This document shows positions 3,326-58,629 of a stretch of 64,000 nt of DNA, piece after piece. Source of the stretch: an uncultured Gammaproteobacteria bacterium (GTDB lineage: Bacteria; Cyanobacteriota; Vampirovibrionia; LMEP-6097); the NCBI GenBank assembly GCA_964438425.1, contig CAYTKM010000002.1, forward strand, positions 9,546 through 73,545. Reading direction: 5' to 3'. A model generated the notes under the pieces. That model was not told the origin of the DNA. It was given only the letters and a program-made list of their open reading frames with translations, and did not search any database. The position numbers and the translations under genes were made by a program. Within the stretch, counting starts at the first letter, position 1, and every line of letters begins with the position of its first letter.

Positions 3326-3347
3326 TTTTATAGCTTAAAGACTAAAT

Positions 3348-18009: not shown

Positions 18010-18016
18010 AGCAAAC

Positions 18017-18151
18017 TTATAAACTTACTTTATGACGGCCTCTGGTTCTACGACGTTTGATCGTACGACGACCAGTAGGACTAGCCATTCTAGCTCTAAA
18101 TCCGCTAGTTCTTTTTCTTTTACGAGTAGTTCCACCTAAAGTTTGTTTCAT
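18017..18151 (-). CDS. rpmH: 50S ribosomal protein L34
   Basis: Not in the ORF track because it is under 60 aa. Minus-strand translation gives [44 protein letters not shown], a canonical L34. Confidence 0.9.
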
Positions 18152-28383: not shown

Positions 28384-28384
28384 A

Positions 28385-29218: not shown

Positions 29219-30204
29219 TATTTGCTAATTCTTGGGTTTTACTACTAATAATTCTAGTACCTTTTTTAGTATGGGCTTATTTAATATTTTCTAAAAGTAC
29301 CGATCTGCAACTAAGCCTGGCACAAAAAAAAGTCACTTACTCAGATGCCCGTGACGCCTTTTTATATCATCTACCCTTTATATTAAGGATTATCATCATT
29401 ATAGTAATTTTAGTAGCGCTGGCTAGACCTCAGTTTGGTCAATCTTTTACTACAAATAAAAATAAGGGTTTAGATATTGTTTTTGCTGTTGATACTTCGC
29501 AAAGTATGTCTGCTTTAGATTTTAGTCTGGAAGGGGTGCAGACTGACCGGCTGACAGTCTTGAAAAGTATTTTAAAAAGTTTTATCGAACAAAGAGCAAG
29601 TGATAGACTTGGTTTGATAGTTTTTGCAGATGAAGCTTACACCCAATCACCTATCACTGCTGACCATGGAGCTTTGCTTGGTCTAGTAGATAAATTATAT
29701 ATAGGTATGGTCGGTAAATCTACAGCGATTGGCTCTGCAATTGGGCTTGGTGTTAAGCGTTTAAAAGATCTGGAAGCTAAAGCTAAGATTATAATTTTAA
29801 TGACTGATGGTCAAAACACCTCAGGTAAAATCTCTCCTAGCGTAGCAACGGAGCTGGCTAAAAAGTACAAGATTAAAATTTATACCATCGGTATCGGTAG
29901 GGATGGTGCAGTGCCTTTTAAATTAAATACACCATTTGGTGAAAAAGTGATCAATCAAGTGGTAAATATTGATGAAAGTAGCTTAATCGAGATCGCAGAA
30001 GCCACTGGAGCGCGTTATTATCGGGCTGAATCCAGCGCTCAGCTGGCACAAATCTACCAAGAAATTAACACTTTAGAAAAAACGGAAGTTAAGTTTAAAG
30101 AATATAGTATGTTTAAAGATATCTTTGAATACTTTTTATGGGTTATTTTAGTCTTAGTGTGCCTGGAGGTAATAGTTAGTAATACTATTTTAAAACGCCT
30201 ATGA
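29215..30204 (+). CDS. batA: BatA-like VWA domain membrane protein
   Basis: Two N-terminal TM segments, then a VWA domain with MIDAS DxSxS (DTSQSMS). Confidence 0.75.
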   Translation: MIFANSWVLLLIILVPFLVWAYLIFSKSTDLQLSLAQKKVTYSDARDAFLYHLPFILRIIIIIVILVALARPQFGQSFTTNKNKGLDIVFAVDTSQSMSALDFSLEGVQTDRLTVLKSILKSFIEQRASDRLGLIVFADEAYTQSPITADHGALLGLVDKLYIGMVGKSTAIGSAIGLGVKRLKDLEAKAKIIILMTDGQNTSGKISPSVATELAKKYKIKIYTIGIGRDGAVPFKLNTPFGEKVINQVVNIDESSLIEIAEATGARYYRAESSAQLAQIYQEINTLEKTEVKFKEYSMFKDIFEYFLWVILVLVCLEVIVSNTILKRL

Positions 30205-32186
30205 ATTTTAAACATCCAGAATTTTTTTGGTTATTAATCTTAGTGCCGCTGCTTATAGGTTTTTTAAGCTGGGCATACCAAAATAAACTAAATAATTTAA
30301 AAAAATTAAGCGCGCGTAGTAGATTTAAGCAGCTGATACCCAACTTTTCTAAAAAGGTTTTATTCATTCGTTATAGCTGTTTAGTGCTGAGTCTAAGTTT
30401 TTTGATTATCGCTTTAATTTCACCTCGCTGGGGCTATGATTACCAGGAGATAGAGCAGCGTGGTACTAATATCATGGTAGCTTTAGATGTTTCGCGTAGC
30501 ATGCTTGCAAGTGACGTTAAACCTAGCCGTTTAGTCAGAGCCAAACTAGAAGTTAAAAGCCTAATTAATAATTTGCAAGGTGACCGTATGGGACTGATAG
30601 TCTTTGCTGGTAGAGCCTTTTTGCAGGTGCCGATGACTCACGATTATATGATGCTACAGGAATGGCTTGATCGTATCAGCGTAGATAGCGTACCTGTGCC
30701 AGGTACTTCTATCAGGTCTGCTTTAGAGTTAACTAAACAAAGTATGTCTCATATTAAAGGTGATAATTTAAAAACCCTGATCATAATTAGTGATGGCGAA
30801 GAGCAAGATGAGGAAACTTTAGAAATGGCTAAATCTGCTAAGGATAGTGGAATCCGCATTATTAGTATCGGCATCGGTAGTAAAAAGGGCTCGCCAATTA
30901 CTTATGAAGGTGAGCTAATTAAAGATGAAAATGATGAAATTGTCATCTCTAAACTAAACGATACTTTACTTAAACAGATTGCTAAGCTGACTGATGGCAA
31001 ATACGTGCAGACACGCACTGGTAATTTTCATTTAGAGCAGCTATACCAAAACTTTATTAAAGCTAAAAGTGAAGATACTTTACTTAAAAGTAGTCGTATT
31101 AAACGTTGGTTTGAAACTTATCAGATCTTTTTAAGCATCTCATTAATCTTTTTAATATTGGAATTAGTTTTAATGCTAGATATTTTACCTAGAATAAGTA
31201 AAGTGTTTAGAAAGAAAGGTTTTAAATCAGGCTTGAAACTAAGTAAGATAGAGGTTTACCATCATCATAGTAGTTTGATAGCGTTAATTTTACTATCTAT
31301 ATTTTTAAGTATGCAGCCAGCTTCAGCTTATAGCCTGACAGAATTTAAAGCTGATCAAGCCTTAAAAAAAGGTAACTTTAGTAAGGCTAAAAGCCTCTAT
31401 CTAAAAGCTCAGGTGGATGAACCTAATAATCCGCGCTTAAATTATAATTTAGGTATTTGCAATTACAAATTAGGTGCCATGCCTCTGGCAATAAAAGATT
31501 TTAAACGTAGCCTGACGCAGCAACTGGCAGCGGAAGCTAAGCATCAGCCCGTAGCTGGCTCTGAAAATAAAGCTAGGAAACCTCTAAAGAGTGTTAAACA
31601 TAAACCTTTTACTGATATTACAGAAAATACTAAACAGCTTCTTGATAGTGTTGAAGTAAACTCTCAATCTAAGCTTAAATCTGCTCCTGACTTAAGCAAA
31701 CTAGCTAGTAAGTCAGAGAATGAAGATGAAAATAAAAAAAAATCTACTAATATTCAGTCTTTAGATCATTTGTCAGTGAGCGATAGATTAAAATATAAAT
31801 CTTACTTTAATCTAGGTAATGCCTACTTTAAACAGGAAAAATACTACGAGGCTTATGAAGCCTACCGAAAAGCTAATCAGTTAAATAGCGATGATCAAGA
31901 TCTAAAACATAATCTGGAAGTTACTGAAAAATTTATCGAGCATGATAAACAGCAACAACAAGGTGAAGATAACCAAGACGATAAAGATAAGGGTAAGGAT
32001 CAGCAGGAGCAAGACAAGCAAAAGCAGGAACAAGAAAAACAGCAAAAACAGGCTGAGCAAGATAAAATGGAAAAGCAGCAGACTGAAAACCTGTTAAAGC
32101 AGATTCAGGAAGCTGGCGCTGAATTTTTACCTAAGATTCAGGCTCCAGCCAGTGATATGGACGCTGGTAAATTAAAACCTTGGTAA
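30201..32186 (+). CDS. batB: BatB-like VWA domain protein with C-terminal TPR repeats and an acidic/Gln-rich tail
   Basis: VWA MIDAS DVSRSM. TPR-like YFNLGNAYFKQEKYYEAYEAY. The start overlaps the batA stop (ATGA). Confidence 0.7.
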   Translation: MNFKHPEFFWLLILVPLLIGFLSWAYQNKLNNLKKLSARSRFKQLIPNFSKKVLFIRYSCLVLSLSFLIIALISPRWGYDYQEIEQRGTNIMVALDVSRSMLASDVKPSRLVRAKLEVKSLINNLQGDRMGLIVFAGRAFLQVPMTHDYMMLQEWLDRISVDSVPVPGTSIRSALELTKQSMSHIKGDNLKTLIIISDGEEQDEETLEMAKSAKDSGIRIISIGIGSKKGSPITYEGELIKDENDEIVISKLNDTLLKQIAKLTDGKYVQTRTGNFHLEQLYQNFIKAKSEDTLLKSSRIKRWFETYQIFLSISLIFLILELVLMLDILPRISKVFRKKGFKSGLKLSKIEVYHHHSSLIALILLSIFLSMQPASAYSLTEFKADQALKKGNFSKAKSLYLKAQVDEPNNPRLNYNLGICNYKLGAMPLAIKDFKRSLTQQLAAEAKHQPVAGSENKARKPLKSVKHKPFTDITENTKQLLDSVEVNSQSKLKSAPDLSKLASKSENEDENKKKSTNIQSLDHLSVSDRLKYKSYFNLGNAYFKQEKYYEAYEAYRKANQLNSDDQDLKHNLEVTEKFIEHDKQQQQGEDNQDDKDKGKDQQEQDKQKQEQEKQQKQAEQDKMEKQQTENLLKQIQEAGAEFLPKIQAPASDMDAGKLKPW

Positions 32187-33276: not shown

Positions 33277-34626
33277 ATGAATCACAACTCGATTGATACA
33301 TTGTTAAATGATCGCCGGGACCAATATCCCACTTTAAACCAGATCAATGCTGCAACTGTCCTTGCCCAAAACAGCAAAGGCTTGTACGTAGATTTAAACA
33401 AGTTTTATGAGGCTTTTATACCAAGCGCTGAATTGAACGCGGACAGCACTTATAAAAACGGTGATAAAGTTGATGTGTTTGTTTTACATGAAGATAAAAA
33501 ACTACCTGGAGTCTTTAAAGCCAGTATTAAGAAGATTACTGAAGCGCGCAAGTGGGAAGATCTAGATCATCTTAAGGACCAAAAGCTAGCTGCTGAGATT
33601 ACTAGAATCGTAAAAAGTGGTGTTGAAGCTAAACTTAAAACGAATGATATCGTAGGCTTCATCCCATTTAGATATATTGATATTAAAACTCCAGTACTAA
33701 AAGGTCTGGAACAAAGCGAGTGGGTAGGCAAAGAAGTTCAGGTTAAAATCCATGAGTTAGACCAAAGCAAAAATAAAATTATTTTAGAGCAAAGATCTAT
33801 CAGTGAAGAGCAGCGTAAAGCTCGCGAAGTGCAAATCATCGAAAGTCTATCTATGGGACAGGAGCTTACAGGAAACATAGTTGCGATTGAAAAATTTGGT
33901 ATGTTTGTTGATGTTGATGGTTTAGATGTTTTAGTACCAACTTCTGAAATTAGCTGGGGTCGTTTTAGATCAGTAAGTGAACTTTATAAAGTTGGTGAAA
34001 CTGTAAGTGGTAAAGTGTTTAAGCTTGATCCTGATAAAAAACAAGTGGCGATGAGTATTAAACAAATGCAGGCTGAGCCATGGTCTAGTTTGGATTTAGA
34101 AAAGTATCAGGCTAATAGTAAGCTGACAGCTAAAGTTGTTTCACATGCTGAATTTGGTTTTTTTGTCGAAGTTGAGCCTGGAGTTGAGGCTTTAGTACAT
34201 AAATCTAACTATGATGGCGAGCAAGCCCCGCCTAAAGGTAGCATGGTAAACGTGGAAGTAATTAGTCTAGATATTGATAAGAAACGTATGGGAGTGAGTA
34301 TGAAAACCAGTGATAATGAAAACTTAGCTACTAACAATCAAGCTAATAAAAAAAATGAGCAGTTTGCTGATAGCCCTTATACTAAAGAAGAGCACACTAA
34401 ACTGGCTGAAAAACCAGCAGCAGCAGTAGCAACTGATGATTTGACTATTCATCAAAACCAGGCTGAACCAGAAGCTAGGCAGGATAACACAGAGAAAAAT
34501 ATTGATATTTCAGATGCTAACGCTGCTAAATCTATAATCGACTCTAGTGATGATACTAAAGAAGTGGAAGGTAAATCTAAAGAGCAAGCTCCAGTAAAAG
34601 AGAAGGAGACTCAAAATGTCAACTAA
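33277..34626 (+). CDS. S1 RNA-binding domain protein (about four S1 repeats, ribosomal protein S1-like, with a low-complexity C-terminal tail)
   Basis: Repeated S1-like segments (GDKVDVFVL..., GQELTGNIVAIEKFGMFVDV..., GETVSGKVFKLD..., KLTAKVVSHAEFGFFVEV...). Shorter than canonical RpsA. Confidence 0.7.
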   Translation: MNHNSIDTLLNDRRDQYPTLNQINAATVLAQNSKGLYVDLNKFYEAFIPSAELNADSTYKNGDKVDVFVLHEDKKLPGVFKASIKKITEARKWEDLDHLKDQKLAAEITRIVKSGVEAKLKTNDIVGFIPFRYIDIKTPVLKGLEQSEWVGKEVQVKIHELDQSKNKIILEQRSISEEQRKAREVQIIESLSMGQELTGNIVAIEKFGMFVDVDGLDVLVPTSEISWGRFRSVSELYKVGETVSGKVFKLDPDKKQVAMSIKQMQAEPWSSLDLEKYQANSKLTAKVVSHAEFGFFVEVEPGVEALVHKSNYDGEQAPPKGSMVNVEVISLDIDKKRMGVSMKTSDNENLATNNQANKKNEQFADSPYTKEEHTKLAEKPAAAVATDDLTIHQNQAEPEARQDNTEKNIDISDANAAKSIIDSSDDTKEVEGKSKEQAPVKEKETQNVN

Positions 34627-43072: not shown

Positions 43073-44224
43073 ATGGTATCCACATTTCTAAACGAAGATC
43101 AAAGCTTATTTAAAAAAATGATAAGTGAAATAGCTGCAAAAGAGTTTGCACCGATAGCAGCTGAACTTGATAAAACGCATAAATTTCCGCGTGCGAACTT
43201 AAAACTTCTAAGCGAGCTTGAGGTTATGGGACTTACTATCGATGAAAAATATGGCGGTGCTGGCATGGATTATATCTGCTACTCGCTTGCGACTGAAGAA
43301 ATCTCTAAAGCTTGTGCGAGCACAGGTACTATGTACTCGGCGCACCTGTCATTATGTGCGATGCCGATAGAAATCTTCGGTAATGAAGAGCAAAAAAAAC
43401 ATTATCTGCCTAAATTATGCTCTGGTGAATACCTGGGTGCTTTCGCTCTATCTGAGCCTGGTAATGGCTCTGATGCGGCGGCTATGCGCACTAAGGCTGT
43501 TGAAGATGGCGACCACTATGTTCTTAGCGGTTCTAAAGCCTGGATCACCAATGGCGCTGAAGCTGACGTTTACATAGTGCTTGCACAAAGTGATTTTGAA
43601 CTAAAACACAAAGGTGTAACGGCTTTTATTGTAGAAAAGGGTACACCAGGCATGAGTTTTGGTAAACCTGAAGATAAACTGGGTATTCGCGCGAGCGCGA
43701 CTTGTCAAATTCATTTCGATGATTGTAAAGTACCGAAAAAAAATATTTTAGGTAAGCCAGGTGATGGTTTTAAGATTGCGATGCAGACTCTTGATGGCGG
43801 TAGAATTGGTATGGCTTCGCAGGCTATCGGCATAGCGCAGGCAGCTTTTGAAGATTCGATTAAATATGCTGAAACTAGAGAAGCTTTTGGTGAAAGTATC
43901 TTAAATTTTCAGGCTATTCAATTTAAACTTGCTAATATGTCGACAGATATTGAGGCGGCGCGCTTGCTAGCTTACCAGGCAGCATGTTTGCATGATGCTG
44001 GCAAAAAATTCACGCGCGCCGCGGCTCAAGCTAAGCTGTTTGCTTCTGAAATGTGTATGAAGCATACGATTGAAGCAATTCAGATCCATGGTGGCTATGG
44101 CTACACTACTGAATATAATGTTGAAAGATATCTAAGAGATGCTAAAATAACAGAAATCTATGAAGGAACCTCAGAAATCCAAAGAATTGTGATTGCTAAG
44201 GAACTTCAAAGAGAATATCTATAA
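43073..44224 (+). CDS. acyl-CoA dehydrogenase (short/branched-chain type)
   Basis: Full-length ACAD fold motifs, including the C-terminal YEGTSEIQRIVIAKEL. Confidence 0.9.
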   Translation: MVSTFLNEDQSLFKKMISEIAAKEFAPIAAELDKTHKFPRANLKLLSELEVMGLTIDEKYGGAGMDYICYSLATEEISKACASTGTMYSAHLSLCAMPIEIFGNEEQKKHYLPKLCSGEYLGAFALSEPGNGSDAAAMRTKAVEDGDHYVLSGSKAWITNGAEADVYIVLAQSDFELKHKGVTAFIVEKGTPGMSFGKPEDKLGIRASATCQIHFDDCKVPKKNILGKPGDGFKIAMQTLDGGRIGMASQAIGIAQAAFEDSIKYAETREAFGESILNFQAIQFKLANMSTDIEAARLLAYQAACLHDAGKKFTRAAAQAKLFASEMCMKHTIEAIQIHGGYGYTTEYNVERYLRDAKITEIYEGTSEIQRIVIAKELQREYL

Positions 44225-45683
44225 TCCTATGGATTATCTACCTCCGAACTATAATCATTTAACCACCCCGCCAGCATATCAGATTGTCGCTGAACGACCT
44301 CACGGTGGCTTGAAATACTATGTGCCTGAGTACCATGAAGTGCGTAAGTATGAAGATAAATTGAAACTTGATCGCTCTGACCAGAGGCGCGAATATACAC
44401 GCAACAGGCAATCTCAGAAGTTAAATATTCCTCGTCAGCTAAGATCGGGTCGAGTTTTAACTCGTAAAACTTTAAAACCTACTAACCAGATGCGCACTAA
44501 AATGATAGTTGGCGCTGAAGATCTGCCAGTTATTAAATTGCCGGCTAGTAAAAATTACACCCAACGTTATATCGAGACTGGAACTCCTCCAGCAGCAGAG
44601 CTTGAAAAACAAGTAGAAGTTGTTAATCAGTCTAGCAAACTTAAAATACCTGATGATTTAGTTCCAGTAGAGCGCTCATCAGCCACTGAGCCTCAGGTAA
44701 ACAAGCAAATTGAAGCTAAAACTACTACTATTCAAGAGAAAGCCGCCGCCGCTGCCCCTGAGATGCTAGAGATCTATCAGATGGAAGAAAAAATTTCTAG
44801 TCAGTTAGATAAACAACAAGCTAACAAGAATGGCACGGAAATGCCGGCTAGTAATTTAGAGAAGCAGGCTAGTACTACTAGTAAGCGGGGTAGCGCGCTG
44901 ATGAATATGGAAAGGTACAACCGCAACCATAAAATTGGTCTAAAAATCCCATTCCTTAAAAAGCGTCTTAAAAACCGTAGGGTAAAAAAAAACTTTAATC
45001 CCGAAAATATAATCGAGGAAGAAATTGAGATTGAAGCTCAAGTTGAAGAAGAGCAGCATAGTGCTTTTGAGAGGATTAAAAGTAAGCTAAACATCATTAG
45101 ACAAAAAGCCGCCGATAACATTATGATGACTACCATTCGTCATAATGAAGAATATATTATTGATGTAGCTGGCTCTAAGGTTAATTTCTCGGAGTACGGT
45201 ATTAATAGAGTCCCGATAAGTGTCGCTGATCAGATCTGGCTTAAAAAAGCTAGACATTACTTTATTAACGCTCGCGAAAAAGGTATCAGAATAGGCTCAT
45301 CACCTAAATATACTACAATGCCGATTCTAGAAAGTTTATGGGCAACAGCTGAGCATTTTAAAATTAACCAGAAAAGATTTTTGGTGCAGTTATATAATGA
45401 AACCAGATTTAATCCGAACTTAATCGGTCAAGCTGGTGAGCGTGGTTTAGGTCAGTTTAAAAAAATGACTGCTAATCATTATAAATACGACTGGCATAAA
45501 ATGAAACAGGGCAATCAAACATATGCTTACCAAGCCTATGCAGCTGCTAGTTTTGTAAATAAAGTCGGTGAGTCGGCTTACAACCATGCGGGCGCTCCCG
45601 GTAAGTTATATTCTGGTGCTATTTCTAGAAGATTAAAGAAAATTGAAAAAACACGAGTACCGAATTTACTATCTAGTAATTAA
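44193..45683 (+). CDS. lytic transglycosylase (SLT) domain protein with a long basic N-terminal region; real start possibly the ATG at 44229
   Basis: SLT catalytic region YNETRFNPNLIGQAGERGLGQF (E-S/T...G-L-x-Q). Confidence 0.6.
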   Translation: MLRNFKENIYNPMDYLPPNYNHLTTPPAYQIVAERPHGGLKYYVPEYHEVRKYEDKLKLDRSDQRREYTRNRQSQKLNIPRQLRSGRVLTRKTLKPTNQMRTKMIVGAEDLPVIKLPASKNYTQRYIETGTPPAAELEKQVEVVNQSSKLKIPDDLVPVERSSATEPQVNKQIEAKTTTIQEKAAAAAPEMLEIYQMEEKISSQLDKQQANKNGTEMPASNLEKQASTTSKRGSALMNMERYNRNHKIGLKIPFLKKRLKNRRVKKNFNPENIIEEEIEIEAQVEEEQHSAFERIKSKLNIIRQKAADNIMMTTIRHNEEYIIDVAGSKVNFSEYGINRVPISVADQIWLKKARHYFINAREKGIRIGSSPKYTTMPILESLWATAEHFKINQKRFLVQLYNETRFNPNLIGQAGERGLGQFKKMTANHYKYDWHKMKQGNQTYAYQAYAAASFVNKVGESAYNHAGAPGKLYSGAISRRLKKIEKTRVPNLLSSN

Positions 45684-47411: not shown

Positions 47412-50228
47412 TTAATCAAGTTTTAATAGCACTGGACTAATTTCAGCTTCAACATCAGCAGGCTCTATGTCAAGCTCTTCTAGATCTCTACTAGATGAAG
47501 AACTAGTTGCATTAATGAAGATAGAGAAGTTTCTTAAGTCTTTTAATAAGCTTTTTAGCATTTTCTTATCCTGTTTATTAATCTTGTCATCTTCGTTGTA
47601 GTCAAACAAGTCATAAAATGAATTAGTATCTACAGTAGCTAAGTTACGGTCACGGTCAAACAAGAACTCTTTGCGGGCTTTTTTAAACTGTTTTTTATAA
47701 GCCTTATTAAGTTTTTTCTTAGGTAACTTGCCATCGAGATTTACATCAAGTAATTCAGCAGCATACAGGAATCTATGAACCTGAATATCACAGCTTGCAT
47801 AGTCTAAACTACGATCTAAAGCATCAACATTACTATCATTGTTTAAATCGAATTTAGGATGGTTAGTTGCAAGTGTGCTAGCAGGAGTAGTATTTTGGCT
47901 ATCGTTAATCAATAGATTTAATTCGCTAGCTAATTTTAATTTCTCTAAGTTCTCTAGATTACTATTTTTATTAACATCAAAACCATTATCCTCAAGTGCA
48001 TTAGTCGCTTCCACGCACGCTAATGGCGTAGGTGCTTGCGGCTGGACTACTGGAGTCTGGCTTAGATCTATAGTCGGGTTAGGTGAGCCAGTGCCAGCAG
48101 TTACTACATCGATCACAAAGCTTTTATCAACAGTAATTCCTGAACCGCTATCATTACATTCGATAGTAATTGTATACTGTGGTTTAGTATTTTTATCAGT
48201 ACTAACTGTAGTTTTAAGTTCCATGTTTGAAAAGCTAATATCGCTGCTGGTATTTACAAGCGAGCAGGCTATTGAATCATTTTCTGGATCCGTCACAACT
48301 ACTCTAGAGATTAAAGTACCAGCAGGTTGGCTATCTTGCACTTCCTGAAACTCTAAATTAATAGAATCTACTGGAAAGTTACCATTAGGAAGCTTAGATC
48401 TTAAGACAGGAGTCATTAAACCTTCTGAAATATACCAGATGTTAGTAAAATCCCAATTCTGGTAAGAAGCTTGCTGTCTTTTAGCTGTGCTGTTCAATAA
48501 AACTGCTACTGTAGCTGCATTACTATTAGTATTAAAGTTATTAAATAGATCTGGTGTGATACCAGCTGCTGTTACATCGGTAAAGTACGCATCAGTAAAA
48601 CTGATATCTTCGATATCGTCATTATTCAAGAATTCACCGACTAGTGGATACTCTTCTAAGTCTATAGTATCGACTACACTACCATCAGCATATGAGTTAA
48701 TGATATCAGTGTCACCACCGTCAATCTCACCGATTAAACCAGCTGCGGCGCCACCATCAGCAAAAACATTCACCTTAGCATATGAATTTTTGATTACGAT
48801 AGTGTCAGTGCCACTTGAGCTATCACCGATAAGACCGCCAGCTTCAGCGCCAGCAGTCAAAACATTACCTTCAGCAAAAGACTCTTCTATTAAAGTGTCA
48901 TCGTTAACATCACCGACTAAACCACCTATGTTCTCACCATTTACATTAGCGTCTATATATGCACAAGACTTTTTAATAGTTAAAGTATTATCGTCAATTT
49001 CGCCGACTAAGCCACCAGTATCACTACCTAAATTATTTAAGGTAATCAAAACATCCGAATTTAAAATCGTTAGATCAGTTTGAGCGTCACCTACTAATCC
49101 CCCTACATCGTTACCGAAAGACTCTATAAAGCCTGTAAATTCAGAGTTAGTGATAGTAGTAATGCCATTGGTGATACCAACTAGACCACCAACGTTGTTT
49201 ACTTCGGTTTTGCTACCCTGATAGAAGAGATCAGCCTGAATATTAATATTGTCAAGTTCAATATTACCGAGAGTTTCACCTGCTAGACCACCAAAATTAC
49301 GTGGCGTGCCAGAAAAATTAGGATTATCCACGATTACTAAAGATGAACCAGTGACGTAAATATCACTAATTTTACTATCAGCAGGAATCGCAGAAAGTAC
49401 TAGTGCAGCGTTAAAATTCCCACTATTAACAGTTATATTATCTAAAAAAGCATTTTTTAGGTAGATAGGTTTAATAACACTAAAGTAACCACCGATAAGA
49501 CCTGCTGCTGCTGCATCAGTACTCGAGTGCATAACGGTTATATTATTTGCTGTAATATTTTCATAAATACCAGCTTTAGTACCACCAACAAGAGCTCCTA
49601 AACGATTGTCACCTTCTATAATAATATTATTTAAAGTAATATTCTCAACTTTAGTATCATTTATAGGGTTATTAATATCGAAATCATCTTCATTAGTCGC
49701 TATTAAAGCTGCTACTTTTTCAGTTCCGATAAAGGTACTTTGAGAGATTGTGACATCATCAAAGCTTGAATTTTCAGCTTTACTAAAGATAGCTACTCTT
49801 TCGGTACTACTACTCAGTACTATATTATTGAAGTTAATATTTTTTACTAGAGAGTTGTTTATTTCTCTAAATAAACCCAGTCTGGTACTGCCGCCAGTAG
49901 TATCTATGGCTTCTAGGTTAGATACAGTAAAGTTGTTACCATCTATAACTACACAAGATAAAGCCTGATCATTTAAGTCAGCTGCTACAAAGGTAGTATT
50001 AGCGCTATCGCAATCTATATTGCCTGCTAGTTTGTAGTAGGTATCATCAGCAGTAATATTTCTAAGATCATTACAATCAGAGATAGTTTCTTCGATTAAA
50101 CCTGTAGTACAAGTACTAGGTAGACCAACTGAGCTAGGACTAGTGGTAGCGAAAGACAGTGCGTTTGCGGCTTGCAAGCCAGCCAAACACATAACCATGG
50201 TGAAAAAAGTTGTATAAAATCTTTTCAT
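47412..50228 (-). CDS. giant secreted surface protein (about 938 aa mature): N-terminal signal peptide, repetitive right-handed beta-helix-like central region (GGLVG/GGLIG repeats), C-terminal ~150-aa dockerin/EF-hand-like plus basic module
   Basis: Signal peptide MKRFYTTFFTMVMCLAGLQAANA; the ORF-track start at 50270 adds 14 aa upstream. Dozens of G-G-L-(V/I)-G-containing ~22-aa repeats. C-terminal Ca-binding-loop-like DLNNDSNVDALD and FDYNEDDKINKQD flank a Lys/Arg-rich helix. Confidence 0.7.
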   Translation of the reverse strand: MKRFYTTFFTMVMCLAGLQAANALSFATTSPSSVGLPSTCTTGLIEETISDCNDLRNITADDTYYKLAGNIDCDSANTTFVAADLNDQALSCVVIDGNNFTVSNLEAIDTTGGSTRLGLFREINNSLVKNINFNNIVLSSSTERVAIFSKAENSSFDDVTISQSTFIGTEKVAALIATNEDDFDINNPINDTKVENITLNNIIIEGDNRLGALVGGTKAGIYENITANNITVMHSSTDAAAAGLIGGYFSVIKPIYLKNAFLDNITVNSGNFNAALVLSAIPADSKISDIYVTGSSLVIVDNPNFSGTPRNFGGLAGETLGNIELDNINIQADLFYQGSKTEVNNVGGLVGITNGITTITNSEFTGFIESFGNDVGGLVGDAQTDLTILNSDVLITLNNLGSDTGGLVGEIDDNTLTIKKSCAYIDANVNGENIGGLVGDVNDDTLIEESFAEGNVLTAGAEAGGLIGDSSSGTDTIVIKNSYAKVNVFADGGAAAGLIGEIDGGDTDIINSYADGSVVDTIDLEEYPLVGEFLNNDDIEDISFTDAYFTDVTAAGITPDLFNNFNTNSNAATVAVLLNSTAKRQQASYQNWDFTNIWYISEGLMTPVLRSKLPNGNFPVDSINLEFQEVQDSQPAGTLISRVVVTDPENDSIACSLVNTSSDISFSNMELKTTVSTDKNTKPQYTITIECNDSGSGITVDKSFVIDVVTAGTGSPNPTIDLSQTPVVQPQAPTPLACVEATNALEDNGFDVNKNSNLENLEKLKLASELNLLINDSQNTTPASTLATNHPKFDLNNDSNVDALDRSLDYASCDIQVHRFLYAAELLDVNLDGKLPKKKLNKAYKKQFKKARKEFLFDRDRNLATVDTNSFYDLFDYNEDDKINKQDKKMLKSLLKDLRNFSIFINATSSSSSRDLEELDIEPADVEAEISPVLLKLD

Positions 50229-50559
50229 GTTGTTTTTCCTCTTGGAACAAATCCTAACATATACAAACAAATAAAACTTAAGTTTTAGTGAAATTATCTT
50301 GATGATTTTTGTTGGGTTAAGCTATTTTAATTCTAAAGGCTTATAAACTTTAAAGCTTGGTATAGAAATGCTTTTGTACTTAAACATTACTCGTCTTATC
50401 TTTAAAAGTTGCTGTATGTGCGTAGATTTAAAGCTAAGTTCTTTTCTGTATTTAAATAGTTAGGCGTTTAAATTGTAAGTATTATATTTATTATACATAA
50501 AGTGCTTTTATTATATATAATTCTTTTTGGCACTACTGGTATGTAATTATGTTGATTTG

Positions 50560-50810
50560 CTAGTGAGGTTTCTTCTTATTTTATCTATTTGGGCTAAAGT
50601 CAGATCTCTTAAATAGTTCAAATAAAGTTTGAAATACTTTACATATTATTTACTGGAGCTGAAGTTAAATCTATTGGATATTTTAAATAAAGCTTGAAGT
50701 TCTCTACATGTTGTTTATTGGAACTGAAGTCAGATGCGTTAATCATTTTAAACAAAAGCCTACAATTTTCTATGTGCTATTTAGTGAGGGCTAAGCACTA
50801 ATAAGTATTT
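50560..50810. repeat. about four degenerate ~63-bp tandem repeats in the upstream region of the 47412..50228 gene
   Basis: Units of the type ttaaataaagYttgaa...ctgaagt(c/t)a(g/a)at... at about 50564, 50626, 50683 and 50748. Confidence 0.6.
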
Positions 50811-50869
50811 AAAGAAGAAGATTAAAGTTTTTTTATACTGTCTACTTAAACAACTAATGATCAAATCTA

Positions 50870-51050
50870 AAGAGACTAATGATAAGACGTTCTAAGGAAA
50901 CTAGTGATAGGGGATGGTGAAGAAACTCAGGGTAGAGGGTTCCAAAGTTAATGTAAGAGATTATGAAGAAAGTATTGGTGAGGGTTGTGAGTTAGTGATT
51001 GGGGATAGTGAAGGAACTCATGGTAGAGGATTTCAAACAGAATTACATGA
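50870..51050. repeat. degenerate tandem repeats (actaatgat... and ggggatRgtgaaGRaactcaKggtagagg...)
   Basis: Two long copies (about 50902-50948 and 50991-51040) preceded by shorter related copies. Short peptide-like reading frames on the plus strand (GDGEETQGRGFQ / GDSEGTHGRGFQ) suggest decayed coding sequence. Confidence 0.5.
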
Positions 51051-51063
51051 AGAATGAAAACAA

Positions 51064-51097
51064 AAATGCGGCAAGTTCACACCTGCCGCATTTTTAG
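51064..51097 (-). terminator. rho-independent, bidirectional-type terminator 26 nt downstream of the 51123..54102 gene
   Basis: Perfect 8-bp stem atgcggca/tgccgcat with a 10-nt loop, flanked by AAAAA and TTTTT. Confidence 0.7.
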
Positions 51098-51122
51098 GTT
51101 TATTTTAGTTTAATAACTGAGC

Positions 51123-54102
51123 TTAGTTACTATTTTCAAGAGAGTCATCGAATGGTAACGCTTCTTCGTCAACTGATGTTTCAGTAACGATATCCGCTGG
51201 TAACTCATCATTATTTAAATCTTCTTGAACACTGTCATCTGATTGAGATGAGCTTGCAGCAGCAAAGATGCTGATGTTTCTTAGTTGTCTTAGAAGTTGT
51301 CTAAAGTATCTTTTATCTTTTTTGTTGATCTTATCATCTTCGTTATAATCAAATAGATCATAGAAAGAGTTAGTATCTACAGTTGCTAGATTACGGTTAC
51401 GATCAAACAAGAATTCTTTACGAGCTTTTTTAAACTGTTTCTTGTAAACATTGTTTAATTTTTTCTTAGGTAATTTACCGTCACGGTTAGTATCTAAGAT
51501 TTCAGCAGCGTGCAAGAATCTATGTACTTGTATATCACAATCAGCGTAGTCTAGGATTCTATCAAAGTTATCAATTAGATTATCATCGTTTAGATCAAAC
51601 TCTGGATAGTTAGTTGCTAGTGTCGCTGCTTGCGCGCTAGTTTCTTTACTATCTTGGATTAATAAGTTTAGTTTGCTTGCTAATCTTAATTTTTCTAAGT
51701 CTTCAAGTAAACCATTATTGTTGATATCAAAGCCATTGTTTACAAGTTCACTTGTCGCAGCTGGGCAAGCTAAAGGCTGTGGGTCACCGATTTGAGGATC
51801 AACAGTATTATCAGCTAAAGTCAAAGCTGGTCCTAAACCTTGACCAGTAATATTAGCCACTGCATTTAGAGGGAACACTCTAGTAATAGCTCTTTGTGAA
51901 CCGAAATCAGTACATTCAATCGTTAGATTTAAAACATCGCCTACATTGGCTGTTAAGTTACTAGCTAAAGAGATTGAAATATTGTCGTTAGAGTCTACGT
52001 CTAAAGTAAATAATGGGCTATTTTGTAAAACACATGTTACAGGATCTGTTTCAGGGTCTACTACTGTTACATTAGCAACTTTTAAACCAGCTATACCATT
52101 GTTTACTACAGCATTTTGATCTAAAGTGATACTTGATACTGGGTAGTTAGTGATTTTGAACCTTAATTCTGGAGTTGATAGACCATCTACGTTATACCAG
52201 ATGCTGTTGAAGTCAAAACCTACATAATTAGCTCTAAAGTTTTTGTCAGTGCTGTTAAGTTTTTGAGCAACAGTGCCTGAGCTATTATTAGTTGAAGAAG
52301 TGTTGAAGTTAGTCGCAAGTGTAGGTGCGAAGTTAGCTGAAGAACTAAAGTAAGCATCATTAAAAGTTACATTAATACCGTCATCATTGTTATTTACTTC
52401 ACCTACTAAAGGGTACTCGTCGTCGTCATTTGCAGTAACTAAATTACCATCAAAATATGAAGTGTTAATAGTGACATTGCTAGAACTTGAACTGTCCATC
52501 TCACCGATAAAACCACCAGCGTTATCATCTGTAGTAGAAAGGTTAACCTTAGAGTATGAATCAGTGATAATTACGTTATTAGCATCTACAACGAAACCAA
52601 CAAAAGAACCAACATCTTCAGCTGCACCGTTTATAGTACCTTTAACAAATGATTGATTAATATCGATACTATTACCTATACGTCCAGCAAAACCACCAAC
52701 TTCATCATCAGTAGCGTCAATATCAACTACGGCACATGTTTTATCAATATCTACAGCGCCACTATAGTTAGCACCAATTAAACCACCATTTAAACTATTA
52801 TCGTGATTTACATTACTATCGATAGTTACAATAGCATCAGAATTAGAGATAGTTAGATTACCATTACTAGCACCTACGATACCACCAACTTCATCATCAA
52901 AACCAGTAATAGTACCTTCAAACTTTACATTTTCAAAAGTATTATCAGTTGAATTAGCGTAACCTACGATACCACCAACTTTATCAATATTAGCTGAACC
53001 GATTTGATTAAAAGGAGCCAAATCTTTTACGTGTTTGATATCAGCTTTAACTAAGATATCCTTTAATCTAACACCATCCTGATAGTACTCACCAATTAAA
53101 CCACCGATGCTACTACTATTGTTGTTTGAACCACCTAAGTAGAGTAAATTTGAGTTAGTAATATTAACATTATTAACTACAGTATCTTTTCTAACAAAGC
53201 TTGAAAGTAGACCAGAAGCTGAACTTCTAGCTTTTACTTCGATGTTGCTTCCAGTAATGTCTGACCAGTTATTTGCTGTAGTAGAACCTAAACCGAAGAT
53301 ACCACCAGCATGGCTATATGTACCACCATGATCAACTACAACATTGGTTGCACTGATTTCGTTGGCTACAGTATCTTTCGCGCTACCTACTAAACCACCT
53401 ACGCGGGTACCAGCTTTAACAGAAGAGTTTGTTAAGTTAACGTTTGAGATAGTTTTAGGGAAATTAGGGTAGTTAGCTACTAGATCTAAAACGTTAGTGT
53501 CATCAGCATTAATACTGTAATCGTTTAAGTTTTGAGAGTAAGAACCTTCCATATTACCTACCAGCGCGCCAGCTCTTTCTCTAGTAGCTTCAACGATAAT
53601 ATTATTTAAGCTTAAGTTCTCAAAAGAACTGTTTTGTGAACCACCAACGATACCTACGCCATATTTACCTTTAATGTTGAAGTTCTCGAAGTCTAAGTTT
53701 TTAAGAATAGAATTTCTAAGTTGTTCGATTAAACCCATGTAATTTCTACTAGTGTTGTTTACAGTAAAGTTAGAAATTTTATAGTTAGTTGTAGAATTTT
53801 TCTGACCATCGATAACGATACAGTTTAAGTTGTTATTAGCTAAAGAGCCTGAGCTAGTAATACCATTACAATCAATGTCATTGGTTAAGGTATAAGCTGT
53901 GCCACCGTGTAAATCCAGCAAGTCTGTACAGTCTGATAAAGTATCAGTTGCTAAAGGCAATGTGCAGTTTGATTGTGGACTTTGTACAGTAGATGGGGCC
54001 ACTGTTGTTATAGTTACGGCACTAGGTGCAAAGGCACTGGCATCTGGCACTGTGCTTACCCCTATTGCTGTAACTAGAAATAATCTAGTAATTTTTTCAG
54101 TT
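51123..54102 (-). CDS. giant secreted surface protein, paralog of 47412..50228 (beta-helix repeats plus the same C-terminal module). The N-terminal signal peptide lies in the +1 frame relative to the ATG at 54100-54102, across a poly(A)6 tract
   Basis: Large ORF 51123..54050 (GTG). Upstream, ATG 54102-54100 gives MKNKLKK then stops. Adding one A to the A6 tract (plus-strand T6 54082-54087) yields MKNKLKKITRLFLVTAIGVSTVPDASA..., a canonical signal peptide. The C-terminal 150 aa are about 80% identical to the paralog. Confidence 0.7.
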
Positions 54103-54818
54103 TGTTTTTCATAATTGAATATTATCTTAGCAAAAAAATGTTTGTGTTTTATTTAATATCTGAAATTTTATATGATAGTTTTAAAAACCCTGGTGAACTT
54201 ATCTTGCTCGAGCTGAATCCTGGCTTTTTATTAAATTAGTTTAATAATATATTCCGAAGGGTTTAAGATAAAGTCGCGTAAGCTTTTTGGGATATTATGT
54301 AAATGTAAGTGCTATGAAGATTTACCTAAATTTATTAAGTAACATAATTTCTGTTATTCTAAGTCGGGGGTTTTACATCCTGAATATAAAAATATTAAGT
54401 AAAACTATGAGTAAATTTACTAATTATTAGGAGCAATACATAAAATATAACAGACTTAATCAAGATATTATGTTTATTCTTGTGTGTGAGGTAGTCCCTA
54501 TTTCATGTTTGAATATTAAAGTTGATATAAACTATATACCAAGGTTTAGAGTACTTATTTTAATTTTTTAATACTTGCTGGTAAGTCAAAAGCAAATAAT
54601 ACTAAATTTTTTTTAGTATTCTAAGTTAATGTAGGTAGTTAGCTCAGTTTATAGTAGATAAAGCGCTGTTATTAAACGGCAGATAAAAGACACAGCCTTA
54701 ATAAGAAAAGTTGACTACATGTGTGTTTATAAATACTAAATCGAAGTATTAAAATAAAAACTATCCCATTAGAGCTTGAATAATTTTTGTTTCAAATTAT
54801 AAAAAGACATGACTTAGC

Positions 54819-55442
54819 TTAGATAGTCTTTAATTCAGGTAGAAAAGGAAGTTTAGGGTCTACACTTAGTGGCTTAGAAATGAATCTATTATACTGTCTG
54901 CATAAAGATCTAATAAAAAACAAATCTTTTTTATTAACTGACAGGTCATTATTATAATCATAAAGTAAAAACTCATTATCCTCGTTAATTACATTTGCGC
55001 TGTTTTGAGCTAAGATAGATTGTCTAAACTGACGGCGTGAAAGCTGGTACTTTTTTTTAAACCGCTTAGACTTTAGGCGCCTGACTTTAAGTTTGCCATT
55101 ATTTTTAAATTTAATAGTATTAATTAGATTATCTAGTTTTGCTAAGTCAGTATCACAGCTTAAATCGTAATACTCTAAATCAGCTTCATTTAAATCTCTA
55201 TCTTGGTTAAAATCAAGATTCGTTTGATCTTTACTCGCAAAACCCGCTGCATTTCTATGCATATCAACAACTAATTTTAGCTTTTCAACTAAATCAAAAC
55301 TATCATTATTATTAAAATCGAAATTGCTTGCAAGCGTAAGAACTTTAGTACTACAGTCTAGATCCATCGTAGCTTTAGCCTGCTCTGCAAACAAAACAGA
55401 GGAAAATATTATGCTTAAAAGTAGTACTTGGTATTTAATCAT
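54819..55442 (-). CDS. small secreted protein (207 aa) consisting of a signal peptide plus a stand-alone copy of the C-terminal dockerin/EF-hand-like plus basic module
   Basis: Signal peptide MIKYQVLLLSIIFSSVLFAEQAKA. DFNNNDSFDLVEKLKL..., basic KLKVRRLKSKRFKKKYQLSRRQF and YDYNNDLSVNKKD align with the giant proteins' C-termini. Confidence 0.55.
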   Translation of the reverse strand: MIKYQVLLLSIIFSSVLFAEQAKATMDLDCSTKVLTLASNFDFNNNDSFDLVEKLKLVVDMHRNAAGFASKDQTNLDFNQDRDLNEADLEYYDLSCDTDLAKLDNLINTIKFKNNGKLKVRRLKSKRFKKKYQLSRRQFRQSILAQNSANVINEDNEFLLYDYNNDLSVNKKDLFFIRSLCRQYNRFISKPLSVDPKLPFLPELKTI

Positions 55443-55656: not shown

Positions 55657-57528
55657 TTAATTTAATGGTTGATTAATATCTAACTTATCATCACCATTTA
55701 ATAAATTAGGTGCATTTTGTTTAGCTAGGCAGATTAAAATGTCTCCACGATCATAGGGCTGAGCCGAGTGAGCGAAGAAAAAATTATCTTTTCTTTTAAG
55801 TATAATTGGTAGCCAGTCACTATCTGCGTACTCGGGAATACGGTATTCACTAAGTACTCCACTTGAATCTAAATGCCTTTCAAAGATATGCACGTTTTGC
55901 TGATCGATAATATCTTTCCATTCGGCGATATTAACAACTTTGGTATAGGCTAGATCACCGCTAATCTCTTTTACTAAATGACTACTAATACTTTTATCTG
56001 GAGTACCGATAGCTGGATAGACATAGGGTACCTGATACATTTCGCGGGCAAGCTGGCAAACTAAAAAGTTAACTTCAGAATTAGAAGTGGTGGCGATAAG
56101 TAAGGTTGCTTTACTGATTTCTGCTTGATCTAGTACATTCGTATCTAAACAATTTCCACAAACTGTAATTAATTTATCACTACTGGATCGATTGCAATAA
56201 ATCTGATTATTATCAATGATACAGACTTTTTTGCCCATATCTGTAAACACTTTACCGATAATCCGCCCTAAAACATTGCCACCAACTACAATAATGTAAC
56301 TGTTATTAATTAGTGATTTAGTAATGCTGGCTGCTTGCCTGGCTGTAAGTCCTTGCAGTAAAACCGTAAAGATAATGGTCGCAAAAACTAAAGATTCTAC
56401 TATATAAGCATCTGTCACTCCTTGCTCGCGCATGACGATGGTAAAAAGTGAAGCCACTGAGGCTGAAACAATACCCTTAGGTCCGATCCATGATAAAAAT
56501 AGTTTTTCTGAGATCTTTAGTAAGCCTATATTAGATAGAAACACAGCTAAAGGTCTGACTAAAAAGACTACACCTAAGATAACGATAATTCCAGGCACGC
56601 CTAACCCACTTAACTTCTCGAAGTCTAAATCAGCCGCGATCAGCACAAACAAGATCGAAATGAACAGAATGGAAAGCTGACCTTTAAAGCGCTTTAAAGT
56701 GTTTAGCTGTGGTACATTTTCTTGCTGCACAGCAAAACCTGTAATCACCACAGCTAAAATGCCAGTATTAGGCTCGAAATTATTACTTAAAGCGTAGGTC
56801 GCAAAAACCCAAGCTAGCACGACCAAGTTTTTTAAATCTGTCGGTATAAACTTTTTAGAAGCTAGTTTACCTAGTAAAAAGCCACTTACATAACCTACCA
56901 CTAAACCTATAAAGAGCTTAGTTAAAAAAGCAATCAAAAACACTTGCCAGGCATTAACTTCCTGTGCCATGTCAGGGTTAAGTTTCATTTCCTGCTCTAC
57001 GAGTACATACTCAAGCACTGCTACTGAGATGAAAGCCCCGAAAGCATTAGATAAAATACCTTCACTTCTTAAAATAGTCGCTAAATCCCGCTTTACTTTT
57101 ACCCTACTTAAGATCGGGTTGATAACCGTAAGACCAGTAATACTCATAAAAGCACCAAATAGCAGACTCAAAGCCCACTCAAGGCCTAATATCAGATGAC
57201 ATAAAATAGCACTACCTAGAACCGTAATTCCAAGTCCTATGGTGAGCATATTTCTAACAGATTTATCAACCTTTTTAAAAGATTTAAAATCGAGACTTAA
57301 GCCACCTTCAAATAATATTAAAGCTACCGCCAGTGATACCAGCACCTCGAAGCCGTCACCGAGTACAGTTGGTTGGATTAAATTTAAAAACTGTGGACCT
57401 AAAAGAACCCCAATTATCATTAAAAAAACGATGCTAGGCAATTTTACTTTAGCTGCTAGCACTTGCATAGCCATCCCCGCAAAAGTGGCGATAACCAAAG
57501 TCGACATTAGTGAAGCGCTTAAGTCCAT
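55657..57528 (-). CDS. monovalent cation:proton antiporter (CPA1/NhaP-Kef-like) with a C-terminal RCK/TrkA-N domain
   Basis: About 12 TM segments followed by a Rossmann [15 protein letters not shown]...KVCIIDNN region. Confidence 0.75.
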
Positions 57529-58629
57529 TTTAGAAAAGCTTTTATAAACTCATCTAATATACTATCACCATTAATGACAGCGTCTACATCACGAGTCTCG
57601 AATTTAGTACGATGATCCTTAACCCTACCTTCGTCAAATACATACGATCTAATAGCATTTCCCCAGGAAGGTAAGACATTTTCGCCTTTTAGCTCAGCAA
57701 TTTTTCGTTGTTGCTCTTCAACTTGCAAAGCTAGTAGTTTAGATTTTATAAGTTCTATAGCGCGCTCTTTATTTTGAACTTGGCTGCGCTCTTCTGTGCA
57801 CTTTACAGTTATATTAGTCGGTATATGCTTAACGCGCACTGCCGTTTCAACTTTGTTTACGTTTTGCCCGCCCGCCCCGCCAGCGCGCATGGTAGTAATG
57901 TCTAAATCACTTTCTGAAAAACCTTCAAGTTGAGTGTTCTGTTTAATAAGAGGTGAAACTTCTAAGCCAGCAAAGCTAGTCTGGCGACTGTCAGCTGATG
58001 ATTTAAAAGGTGATTTGCGTACTAATCTATGTACGCCCTTTTCAGCAGCTAGGTAACCATAAGCGAAGTCCCCAACTATTTTTAAAGTCGCTGACTTTAT
58101 ACCAGCTTCTTCACCATTTGAGCGCTCCAGTAAAGTGACTGTATAATCTTTAGTTGCTGCCCAGCGAGTATACATTCTAAGTAAAATTTCAGCCCAGTCC
58201 TGCGCGTCAGTACCACCAGCACCAGCATTAATCGAGATAATAGCCGAAAATTCATCGTAAGGTCCAGACATTAGCTGCATAAATTCAAAACCTTCCAGCT
58301 CCTGAATGAGCTTTAAATATTCATTTTCAAGCATAGTACGCACTTCAGGATCTTCTTCTTCAGTTAGAATCCCATGCATCTCTTCGAGATCATGCACGCG
58401 GGTTTGCCAGCTAGAAACTTTTTCTAGTAAAGATTTTTTGCGCCCTAATGTTTTACTAACTTCCTGAGCTTTATCGCTATCCTGCCAAAATTCTGGGTCT
58501 AAAGTTTGCTGTTCGAGTTCATTTACTTCAGTTTTAAGCTTTTTAAGGTCAAAGACACTCCTTAGCAGCCTGATATTTTTCTGTAAGTAAGTTTAAATCA
58601 ATTTTATTTTCAAGATCACCAGTTTTCAT
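57519..58629 (-). CDS. prfB: peptide chain release factor 2, with the canonical programmed +1 ribosomal frameshift at CUU UGA C (UGA = 58549..58551)
   Basis: Frame 0 ORF 58629..58549 encodes [26 protein letters not shown] ending ...AAG GAG TGT CTT TGA C. The +1 frame (58550..57519) continues as [24 protein letters not shown]... into the ORF-track product, which carries the SPF motif and the GGQ motif ([18 protein letters not shown]). Confidence 0.9.

Follow-up and report, generated by a model that had tools for sequence, protein, structure and literature searches.

What kind of domain is shared by the C-termini of three neighbouring genes, and what might it do for the proteins that carry it? 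The question is raised by one region of the 64-kb window analysed here (by the window we mean the whole stretch, 64,000 nucleotides of contig CAYTKM010000002.1), in which three minus-strand open reading frames (ORFs) at 47412-50270, 51123-54050 and 54819-55442, named p1, p2 and p3, end in a common module. A first-pass annotation had described this set of same-strand genes, and their coordinates, alignments and a hidden Markov model (HMM) search agree with it; the module, put there at about 150 aa, actually spans about 170 aa. As judged from its sequence, it is a divergent member of the EF-hand superfamily, and its likeness to dockerins comes down to one calcium loop plus helix. The features that concern the module are the following.

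p1, 47412..50228, minus strand: predicted exported protein of 938 aa (ORF; the same 938-aa call is found in public assemblies)
p1 C-terminal module, 47517..48032, minus strand: 172 aa
p1 EF loops, minus strand: 47943-47978, 47814-47849, 47712-47747 (degenerate) and 47568-47603
p1 basic helix, 47664-47729, minus strand
p1 Ser-rich acidic tail, 47415..47516, minus strand: no hydrophobic anchor
p2, 51123..54050, minus strand: 975-aa ORF from GTG, paralogue of p1 with the architecture of p1
p2 C-terminal module, 51264..51782, minus strand: 173 aa
p2 EF loops, minus strand: 51693-51728, 51561-51596, 51459-51494 (degenerate) and 51315-51350
p2 basic helix, 51411-51476, minus strand
p2 acidic tail, 51126..51263, minus strand
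p3, 54819..55442, minus strand: 207 aa, signal peptide and module alone, pI 9.0
p3 module, 54876..55373, minus strand: 166 aa
p3 EF loops, minus strand: 55284-55319, 55179-55214, 55077-55112 (degenerate, K at position 1) and 54924-54959
p3 basic helix, 55026-55094, minus strand: net charge +13

A shared and strongly constrained module

The ORF of p1 (47412-50270) could encode 952 aa, and its likely start, MKRFYTT at 50228, leaves the 938-aa protein. When an HMM of the module was searched against the six-frame translation of the window, p1, p2 and p3 were matched and nothing else. Overall, p1 and p2 are 42% identical; over the module (the last ~170 residues before the low-complexity tail) identity amounts to 73%, and over its central 60 residues to 87%. 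The N-terminal parts, which had already been called divergent, share 25-53% identity in 60-residue windows. p3 and the module can be aligned along 182-197 residues, of which 25-27% are identical (E 9e-6 to p1, 2e-9 to p2); within the ~170-aa module itself, p3 shares 27-31% of its residues with the large proteins. p3 consists, as had been proposed, of a signal peptide followed by the module and nothing more.

Between p1 and p2 the proportion of synonymous differences (pS) is saturated over the whole gene and reaches 0.72-0.90 inside the module, while the proportion of non-synonymous differences (pN) falls from 0.31-0.59 over the N-terminal part to 0.09-0.30 over the module, where the 60 central codons have the lowest value, 0.09. 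No other portion of the proteins is as strongly constrained as the module. Since synonymous sites are saturated and the module is nevertheless conserved, the high p1/p2 identity in this region reflects long-term purifying selection; gene conversion or a recent domain swap, which we considered as its source, is ruled out by the same saturation. The 60 most constrained residues begin in the linker between the second and third EF-hands (EF2-EF3), where the second invariant cysteine lies, and take in loop 3 and the basic helix.

Loops, basic helix and cysteines

An exhaustive HMMER search with the module among 1.84 billion representative proteins returned seven matches, namely p1, p3, a fragment of p2, P0125 (966 aa), P0126 (984 aa), P0129 (1021 aa, E 1.6e-5) and P0128. 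The modules of p1, p2, p3, P0125, P0126 and P0129 were aligned (alignment A4). In all six proteins loops 1, 2 and 4 are canonical 12-residue loops, with D at position 1, N/D at positions 3 and 5, a hydrophobic residue at 8 and D/E at 12; DINNNGLLEDLE of p2 is an example. Loop 3 is degenerate (DTNRDGKLPKKK; KFKNNGKLKVRR in p3), keeps only its Gly and leads directly into the polybasic helix. The loops start at module residues 19, 63, 98 and 145, with spacings of 44, 35 and 47 residues. Invariant in the alignment are positions 1 and 12 of loop 1, together with the Phe just before and the Leu just after it, the D-x-N-x-D of loop 2, the Gly of loop 3, the D-x-N-x-D plus D12 of loop 4, and two cysteines, C6 and C82 of the module.

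Each module contains 3-4 matches to the strict EF-hand loop pattern, and the remaining 42 ORFs of the window average 0.034 matches per 170 aa; this corresponds to a roughly 90-fold enrichment over the rest of the window, and none of 5000 composition-matched shuffles equalled the observed count. Ca2+ binding is predicted for loops 1, 2 and 4. The helix that exits loop 3 has a net charge of +7 to +13 and a hydrophobic moment of 0.54-0.72 in six of six proteins. It carries a lone, narrow hydrophobic stripe at i, i+4 and i+8 and Lys/Arg on its remaining surface, which indicates an amphipathic helix with an exposed face that is almost wholly Lys/Arg. The Asp/Asn-rich loops and basic helices quoted in the first-pass annotation are all present; a QVHRFL..AAE box, which it took to be common to the three proteins, is found in both large proteins and is missing from p3.

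p1 and p2 share nine conserved cysteine positions, that is, the two invariant ones and seven others, a pattern that fits disulfide-bonded extracytoplasmic proteins; the invariant pair is compatible with a disulfide that forms outside the cytoplasm. Their last 45 residues, which in p1 reach into the module, have a net charge of -6 in p1 and -14 in p2; p3 is devoid of an acidic tail.

Assignment to the EF-hand superfamily

The EF-hand- or dockerin-like character that had been read from the loops is supported by profile, Pfam and hhalign matches. A profile of six sequences matched, among PDB entries, RIB57 (3e-4) and GCAP3 (4e-4), then GCAP1 and hippocalcin, and its match to the CelS dockerin (2mte/1daq) covers loop 4 only (E 4.6e-3). 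The module of P0126 scores above the Pfam cut-offs for EF-hand_1 (30.1 vs 25.4 bits) and EF-hand_5 (28.7 vs 25.9) and matches the module profile at E 7e-29; the window modules are placed in the EF-hand superfamily through their homology to P0126, which passes these curated cut-offs. Dockerin_1 matches were sub-threshold in five of the six members (17.6-19.1 bits, cut-off 22.9), and NCBIfam gave no match to the module. In hhalign comparisons, EF1-EF2 of calmodulin falls on module loops 2-3, whose starts lie 35 residues apart as in a canonical pair, and repeat 2 of the C. thermocellum CelS dockerin falls on loop 4 and its helix with E 1.7e-4. The module can hence be called novel at the level of the family; above that level the term does not hold, as P0126 passes the Pfam cut-offs and places it in the EF-hand superfamily.

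Structure prediction with AlphaFold2 reached a predicted local distance difference test score (pLDDT) of 41 on three sequences; with six sequences the best model reached a pLDDT of 79 and a predicted template modelling score (pTM) of 0.73, the other four models scoring 42-65. The best model, from the six-sequence alignment, predicts eight helices that bracket four loops and would form four helix-loop-helix units (module residues 6-18/28-47, 52-58/76-82, 84-98/111-129 and 140-143/154-172), the module being predicted as all-helical. Comparison of the predicted global fold with solved EF-hand structures gave no match.

Outside the family, just one of the 1.84e9 representatives was matched, namely P0128 (E 7e-10, in nine stretches), a 3318-aa metagenomic protein with a phage tape-measure domain (TMP_3) and 14 EF-hand_7 pairs, which is an unusual combination.

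The large N-terminal parts and export

Three further features bear on what the module is attached to and on how the proteins might leave the cytoplasm.

p1 signal peptide MKRFYTTFFTMVMCLAGLQAANA, 50160..50228, minus strand: Sec type, A-x-A cleavage site (read from sequence)
p1 GLUG-repeat region, 48729..49640, minus strand: about nine GG(L/I)(V/I)G motifs, mostly 29-30 residues apart
p3 signal peptide, 55371-55442, minus strand (read from sequence)

Proteins of the p1/p2 type are composed, in this order, of a signal peptide, a Cys-rich cap, GLUG repeats, one or more cadherin-like domains, a Pro/Gln linker, the EF-hand module and the acidic tail. p1 and p2 each contain about nine GG(L/I)(V/I)G motifs with a period of mostly ~30 residues and a W-D-F..I-W...P-x-L-R end motif. 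The G-G-L-V/I-G repeats reported initially are therefore real, with the correction that they represent a known motif, GLUG (PF07581), which scores 20.6 bits against a cut-off of 20.5 in p1, is sub-threshold in p2, and reaches 22.6 bits in P0126 and 67 bits (8e-19) in P0129. A weak Cadherin match lies at ORF residues 643-710 of p1, and P0129 has three Cadherin domains (E 1.7e-24). All 389 homologues of p1 were found via the GLUG region; nearly all among the 120 listed carry PF07581, and many GLUG homologues carry Peptidase_M26_N-like regions. M26-type metalloprotease activity was considered for p1 and p2 and is excluded by the absence of an HExxH motif from both. On these family matches, the passenger part of p1 and p2 is an ordinary adhesin-like surface-protein type.

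Other GLUG proteins carry a variety of modules, including the C-terminal domain (CTD) of the type IX secretion system (T9SS; PF18962), a TPS domain, a pilin N-methyl motif and PGF-type modules, and in P0056, itself a GLUG protein, an ordinary EF-hand pair directly precedes a C-terminal membrane anchor. In the window proteins Pfam and NCBIfam revealed no autotransporter barrel, T9SS CTD or TPS domain. N-terminal Sec-type signal peptides can be read in p1, p3, P0125, P0126 and P0129. The first-pass statement that all three window proteins are secreted consequently stands for p1 and p3, and fails for p2, in which the signal peptide is out of frame.

Two plus-strand ORFs lie antisense to p1, at 47839-48348 (169 aa) and 48487-49083 (198 aa); both are Ser/Pro/Leu-rich and look like shadow ORFs of the GLUG region.

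The start of p2 and the flanking spacers

The interrupted start of p2 and the sequence behind its stop comprise the following features.

p2 original start, 54074..54112, minus strand: ATG at 54112, MKNKLKKLL, deletion of 1 nt (G) next to 54085, stop at 54074-54076
hairpin resembling an intrinsic terminator, 51061..51096, minus strand: 16-bp stem followed by a T run, directly after the p2 stop

The ATG at 54112 encodes MKNKLKKLLDYF and then a stop, where P0126 begins MKNKLKKLLGLFVVSSIGLSSVAPAFA. In the DNA alignment the window reads TTACTAG-ATTA at this place, against TTATTAGGGTTA in P0126, and restoring one G yields MKNKLKKLLGLFLVTAIGVSTVPDASA/FA, which matches P0126. A single nucleotide missing next to 54085 thus puts the ATG and the start of the signal peptide in a different frame from the 975-aa ORF. 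As the site of the frameshift we also considered the A6 run at 54092-54097; the comparison with P0126 shows the G deletion instead. The deletion sequence is identical in three other assemblies, and p2 may be either a recent pseudogene or a gene expressed only via rare frameshifting. We note, as a speculation, that a -1 slip on the A6 run, just upstream of the deletion, would also restore the frame.

The terminator-like hairpin after p2, a strong one, suggests that p2 and p1 are separate transcription units. The spacers upstream of p1 (50229-51122) and p2 (54113-54818) are unusually long (0.7-0.9 kb), very AT-rich and non-coding; they have no significant repeats in common, and promoter-like sites are no commoner in them than in shuffled sequence.

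Distribution and host lineage

The module has six carriers among the 1.84e9 representatives, all from one set of metagenomes. P0129 lies on the window's 316-kb contig, ~100 kb from the locus and adjoining an lpxC homologue, so that the genome has at least four module carriers; the four on the recovered contig comprise three proteins of one GLUG/cadherin type, plus p3. P0125 and P0126 are encoded on short contigs with a GC content of 33% that come from the same JGI sample series, and their neighbourhoods are unrelated (a polysaccharide flippase; resistance-nodulation-division (RND) efflux genes, the latter next to P0126). No further copy of the module was found in the neighbourhoods of P0125, P0126 and P0129. 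A word-indexed homologue search with a three-sequence module profile recovered p3 itself only, and neither a scan of a genome collection with the module nor scans of metagenome contigs with the profile and a single module gave a relative, these collections being apparently without the source samples.

The host is a low-GC lineage (~34%). The release factor RF2 encoded by prfB finds its best relatives, at 56-60% identity and none above 60%, in Melainabacteria, Cyanobacteria and Chloroflexota metagenome-assembled genomes, and for ribosomal protein S1 (gene at 33277-34626, plus strand) a search of 5.8 billion proteins gave no relative more than 49% identical. To go by such searches, sampling of the host lineage is very poor and sequenced relatives are all but lacking. 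That the module is rare is in part a consequence of this poor sampling, which also leads one to expect orphan proteins across the whole window. A diderm envelope is suggested by the lpxC homologue, which shares the window's contig; the RND efflux genes beside P0126 agree with this, on a contig that may be another organism's.

The prfB gene (57519-58629, minus strand) contains a classic programmed +1 frameshift site. Its leader starts with the ATG at 58627-58629, comprises 25 codons and ends in AAGGAG..CTT TGA C (CTT 58552-58554, TGA 58549-58551), and a 292-aa ORF continues in the +1 frame. On the window's contig, P0129 is flanked by ORFs of 1243 and 1540 aa (1705-5436 and 13527-18149 of locus L087, both minus strand) that have no Pfam match; they could be further surface proteins of the lineage.

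What the module may do

Our favoured reading, to which we assign a probability of roughly 0.45, is that the module is a lineage-specific, highly divergent four-EF-hand domain that tethers or docks GLUG/cadherin adhesin-like proteins and occurs alone in p3. Outside the cytoplasm, where calcium is abundant, Ca2+ would bind to the three functional loops and stiffen the helical bundle. The hydrophobic stripe of the basic helix would pack on the domain, and the stiffened bundle would expose its cationic face, which could then fix the GLUG/cadherin stalk by its C-terminal end to some polyanionic component of the envelope. This component could be lipopolysaccharide (LPS) with its phosphates, related loci containing an lpxC homologue and RND efflux genes; it could also be some acidic polysaccharide or a sister protein that offers its acidic tail or its module. 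Display of the passenger domains on or near the cell surface might follow, and p3, basic and without an acidic tail, might act in the same interaction as a free adaptor, a competitor or a periplasmic calcium-binding partner.

An anchoring or docking role is plausible, and it is supported, though not proven, by the sorting and anchoring modules borne by other GLUG proteins and by the EF-hand pair ahead of the anchor in P0056. To call the shared domain the hallmark of a sorting or docking system, as the first-pass annotation did, was an overstatement; such a role is something we infer, with four carriers on the contig and three of them of one type. Several observations weigh against the reading. 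The window modules themselves remain below the Pfam cut-off (EF-hand_7, 16.9-17.9 bits vs 30; p3 has no match), and the signal peptide of p2 has been lost in this population. As one architecture plus p3 carries the module, the latter may be an integral part of that family, and in the absence of an obvious outer-membrane route the proteins may be periplasmic. In addition, neither the cohesin-like or processing partner envisaged at the outset nor any other binding partner or ligand was identified in the neighbourhoods examined.

The lack of a partner in these neighbourhoods counts for the main rival, in which the module is a structural or sensing calcium domain only, no docking takes place and p3 is a periplasmic calcium sensor or buffer similar to CaBP or EfhP. 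The basic helix would then merely be the exiting helix of a degenerate EF-hand, and external Ca2+ would stabilise or switch the GLUG/cadherin protein. All the EF-hand evidence is shared between this explanation and the favoured one; cadherin-type domains are calcium-dependent, which counts for the rival (P0129 has three), and small Sec-exported bacterial EF-hand calcium sensors are documented (PMC13171946, PMC9132961). What it leaves unexplained is why a cationic surface of +7 to +13 is kept in six of six proteins, including p3 and the distant P0129, and why the stretch from linker to basic helix is 87% identical at saturated synonymous sites; we consider it unlikely on balance, and yet a serious contender. 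Less probable than this is a new form of calcium-dependent surface display independent of cohesin, in a deep-branching and almost unsampled diderm lineage, in which envelope-bound p3 or LPS itself would serve as the receptor and the module of the giant GLUG/cadherin proteins would dock through Ca-dependent EF-hand pairing and the polybasic helix. It would be a functional counterpart of dockerin and cohesin that arranges the same calcium-loop unit in another way.

A true dockerin-cohesin system, in which the module would be an expanded dockerin for a cohesin-like scaffold encoded elsewhere, seems improbable to us. Loop 4 and its helix do align with CelS dockerin repeat 2, and five of six members give sub-threshold Dockerin_1 matches; these scores are nonetheless all below the cut-off, the similarity of ~20-30 residues is that of a generic calcium loop plus helix, the layout of two tandem repeats is absent, and no cohesin Pfam match was found on neighbouring genes. 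Marginally weaker still is the case for a C-terminal sorting signal read by dedicated machinery (compare the T9SS CTD, PEP-CTERM/exosortase and LPXTG/sortase), with p3 as cargo or decoy. It would account for a C-terminal domain common to neighbouring exported paralogues, other GLUG C-termini often bear such signals, and these proteins possess no known outer-membrane translocation domain. Sorting signals, however, usually mark many unrelated cargos, and here the carriers are few (four on the contig and six in 1.84e9 representatives, three of them one type); their ends are acidic and unconserved (LLKLD, LENSN, ELKTI), with no C-terminal transmembrane helix or basic tail, the module is predicted to be all-helical, unlike beta-sandwich CTDs, and the neighbourhoods examined contain no sortase, exosortase or T9SS gene. 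The large repetitive N-terminal region, the small adjacent gene and the frameshift in p2 could also evoke a polymorphic toxin C-terminus with p3 as immunity protein, or p3 as a decaying duplication fragment, and to these we give hardly any credence. The toxin reading is rejected because the pattern of conservation is reversed, with a conserved C-terminus and a variable N-terminus, and because gene order does not fit either, p3 lying upstream and being a homologue of the module, not a separate immunity protein. Nor is p3 a fragment under no selection, as its ORF is intact and, at only 27% identity, it keeps a signal peptide of its own, the two conserved cysteines and every ligand position of the loops.

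Should anchoring by the four-EF-hand module be true, it would constitute another independent use of calcium-loop modules of the EF-hand/dockerin type to attach large surface proteins, in this case with no cohesin and in an envelope of the Gram-negative type. One would also learn from it how adhesins without a known outer-membrane export or anchoring signal are displayed in an unsampled lineage whose nearest matches are in Cyanobacteriota/Melainabacteria. Should the module be a structural calcium domain and no more, the result is an improvement in annotation with limited wider significance. On the practical side, the module represents a small, new subfamily of EF-hands to which the current models of Pfam and NCBIfam are blind, the window proteins receiving no above-threshold annotation for it.

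Other features of the window

At 44193-45683 (plus strand) a 496-aa ORF with a long Lys/Gln/Glu-rich N-terminal region overlaps the end of an acyl-CoA dehydrogenase gene by ~30 nt; its C-terminal part gives a weak match to SLT lytic transglycosylases (E 1.2e-3, below cut-off). A same-strand gene run at 27463-32186 (plus strand) ends in a VWA plus TPR protein (30201-32186) and looks like a BatA-D-type (aerotolerance-like) cluster. A DUF1800/DUF1501 gene pair is located at 19528-22781 (minus strand).

Comparison with known systems

With regard to C-terminal sorting signals, the earlier view that the module differs from LPXTG, PEP-CTERM, the T9SS CTD and the classical dockerin is upheld by the absence of a hydrophobic C-terminal helix, by the all-helical prediction and by the lack of a match to any sorting model. 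The C-terminal 34-46 residues are Ser-rich and acidic and contain no hydrophobic stretch, which departs from the layout of LPXTG, PEP-CTERM, GlyGly-CTERM and PGF-CTERM proteins, where a short motif precedes a hydrophobic transmembrane helix and a basic tail at the very C-terminus; for the T9SS CTD (PF18962 and relatives), a beta-sandwich of ~80-100 aa, there was no Pfam or NCBIfam match. RTX-type substrates of type I secretion have GGxGxDxUx nonapeptide repeats and a C-terminal secretion signal, and lack an N-terminal signal peptide; this reading was considered as well and rejected, given that no RTX-repeat family is among the Pfam matches and that N-terminal Sec-type signal peptides are present.

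The type I dockerin (PF00404) resembles the module in its export, its C-terminal place, its calcium-loop-plus-helix ("F-hand") and the proposed attachment of a passenger; loop 4 of the module, DYNEDDKINKKDKRYFRQLL, can be set beside DLNEDGRVNSTDLGILKRYI of the CelS dockerin. Type I dockerins have a size of ~70 aa. The module differs in its ~170 aa with four loops in place of two duplicated loop-helix segments, in its sub-threshold score, and in its host, a low-GC bacterium without a cellulosome context that has LPS and RND genes at related loci; no cohesin Pfam match was found on the called neighbours in the 64-kb window and ~60 kb of related loci. In dockerins, two EF-hand-like motifs follow a loop-helix-helix-loop-helix layout (PMC12484212).

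With proteins of the EF-hand superfamily, which in Pfam forms a clan including EF-hand_1/5/6/7, such as the GCAPs, hippocalcin/recoverin and calmodulin, the module has in common the D-x-N/D-x-D/N...D/E loops between helices, four of them in ~170 aa, and with the calmodulin EF-hand pair the 35-residue spacing of loops 2-3. One degenerate loop is common in neuronal calcium sensor proteins. In contrast to such four-EF-hand proteins, the module is predicted to be extracytoplasmic, has a probable disulfide and spacings of 44-47 residues between loops 1-2 and 3-4, and its EF3 has a polybasic exiting helix; moreover, it is fused C-terminally to a GLUG/cadherin surface protein. Extracellular EF-hand pairs stabilised by disulfides exist in SPARC/BM-40. 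This protein (PF10591) offers a eukaryotic analogy for an extracytoplasmic EF-hand, with no direct match to the window modules; PF10591 was matched by P0128 only.

Bacteria, too, have EF-hand proteins: CaBP of Caulobacter, with 133 aa and three EF-hand motifs, senses calcium in the periplasm (PMC13171946), and Pseudomonas EfhP is likewise small and exported (PMC9132961, PMC4053335). p3 is similar to CaBP in its small size and its combination of a signal peptide with EF-hand motifs; it showed no sequence relationship to CaBP or EfhP in any search, is paralogous to the domain of giant proteins and possesses the +13 basic helix. The N-terminal ~560 aa of p1 and p2 resemble GLUG surface proteins (PF07581; Peptidase_M26_N-like, PF05342), of which others end in a T9SS CTD, PGF, TPS or other modules and none in the EF-hand plus basic-helix module. 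Altogether, what is new at this locus is a lineage-restricted EF-hand variant; the kind of domain and the type of surface protein to which it is fused are known, and the locus does not represent a new class of system.

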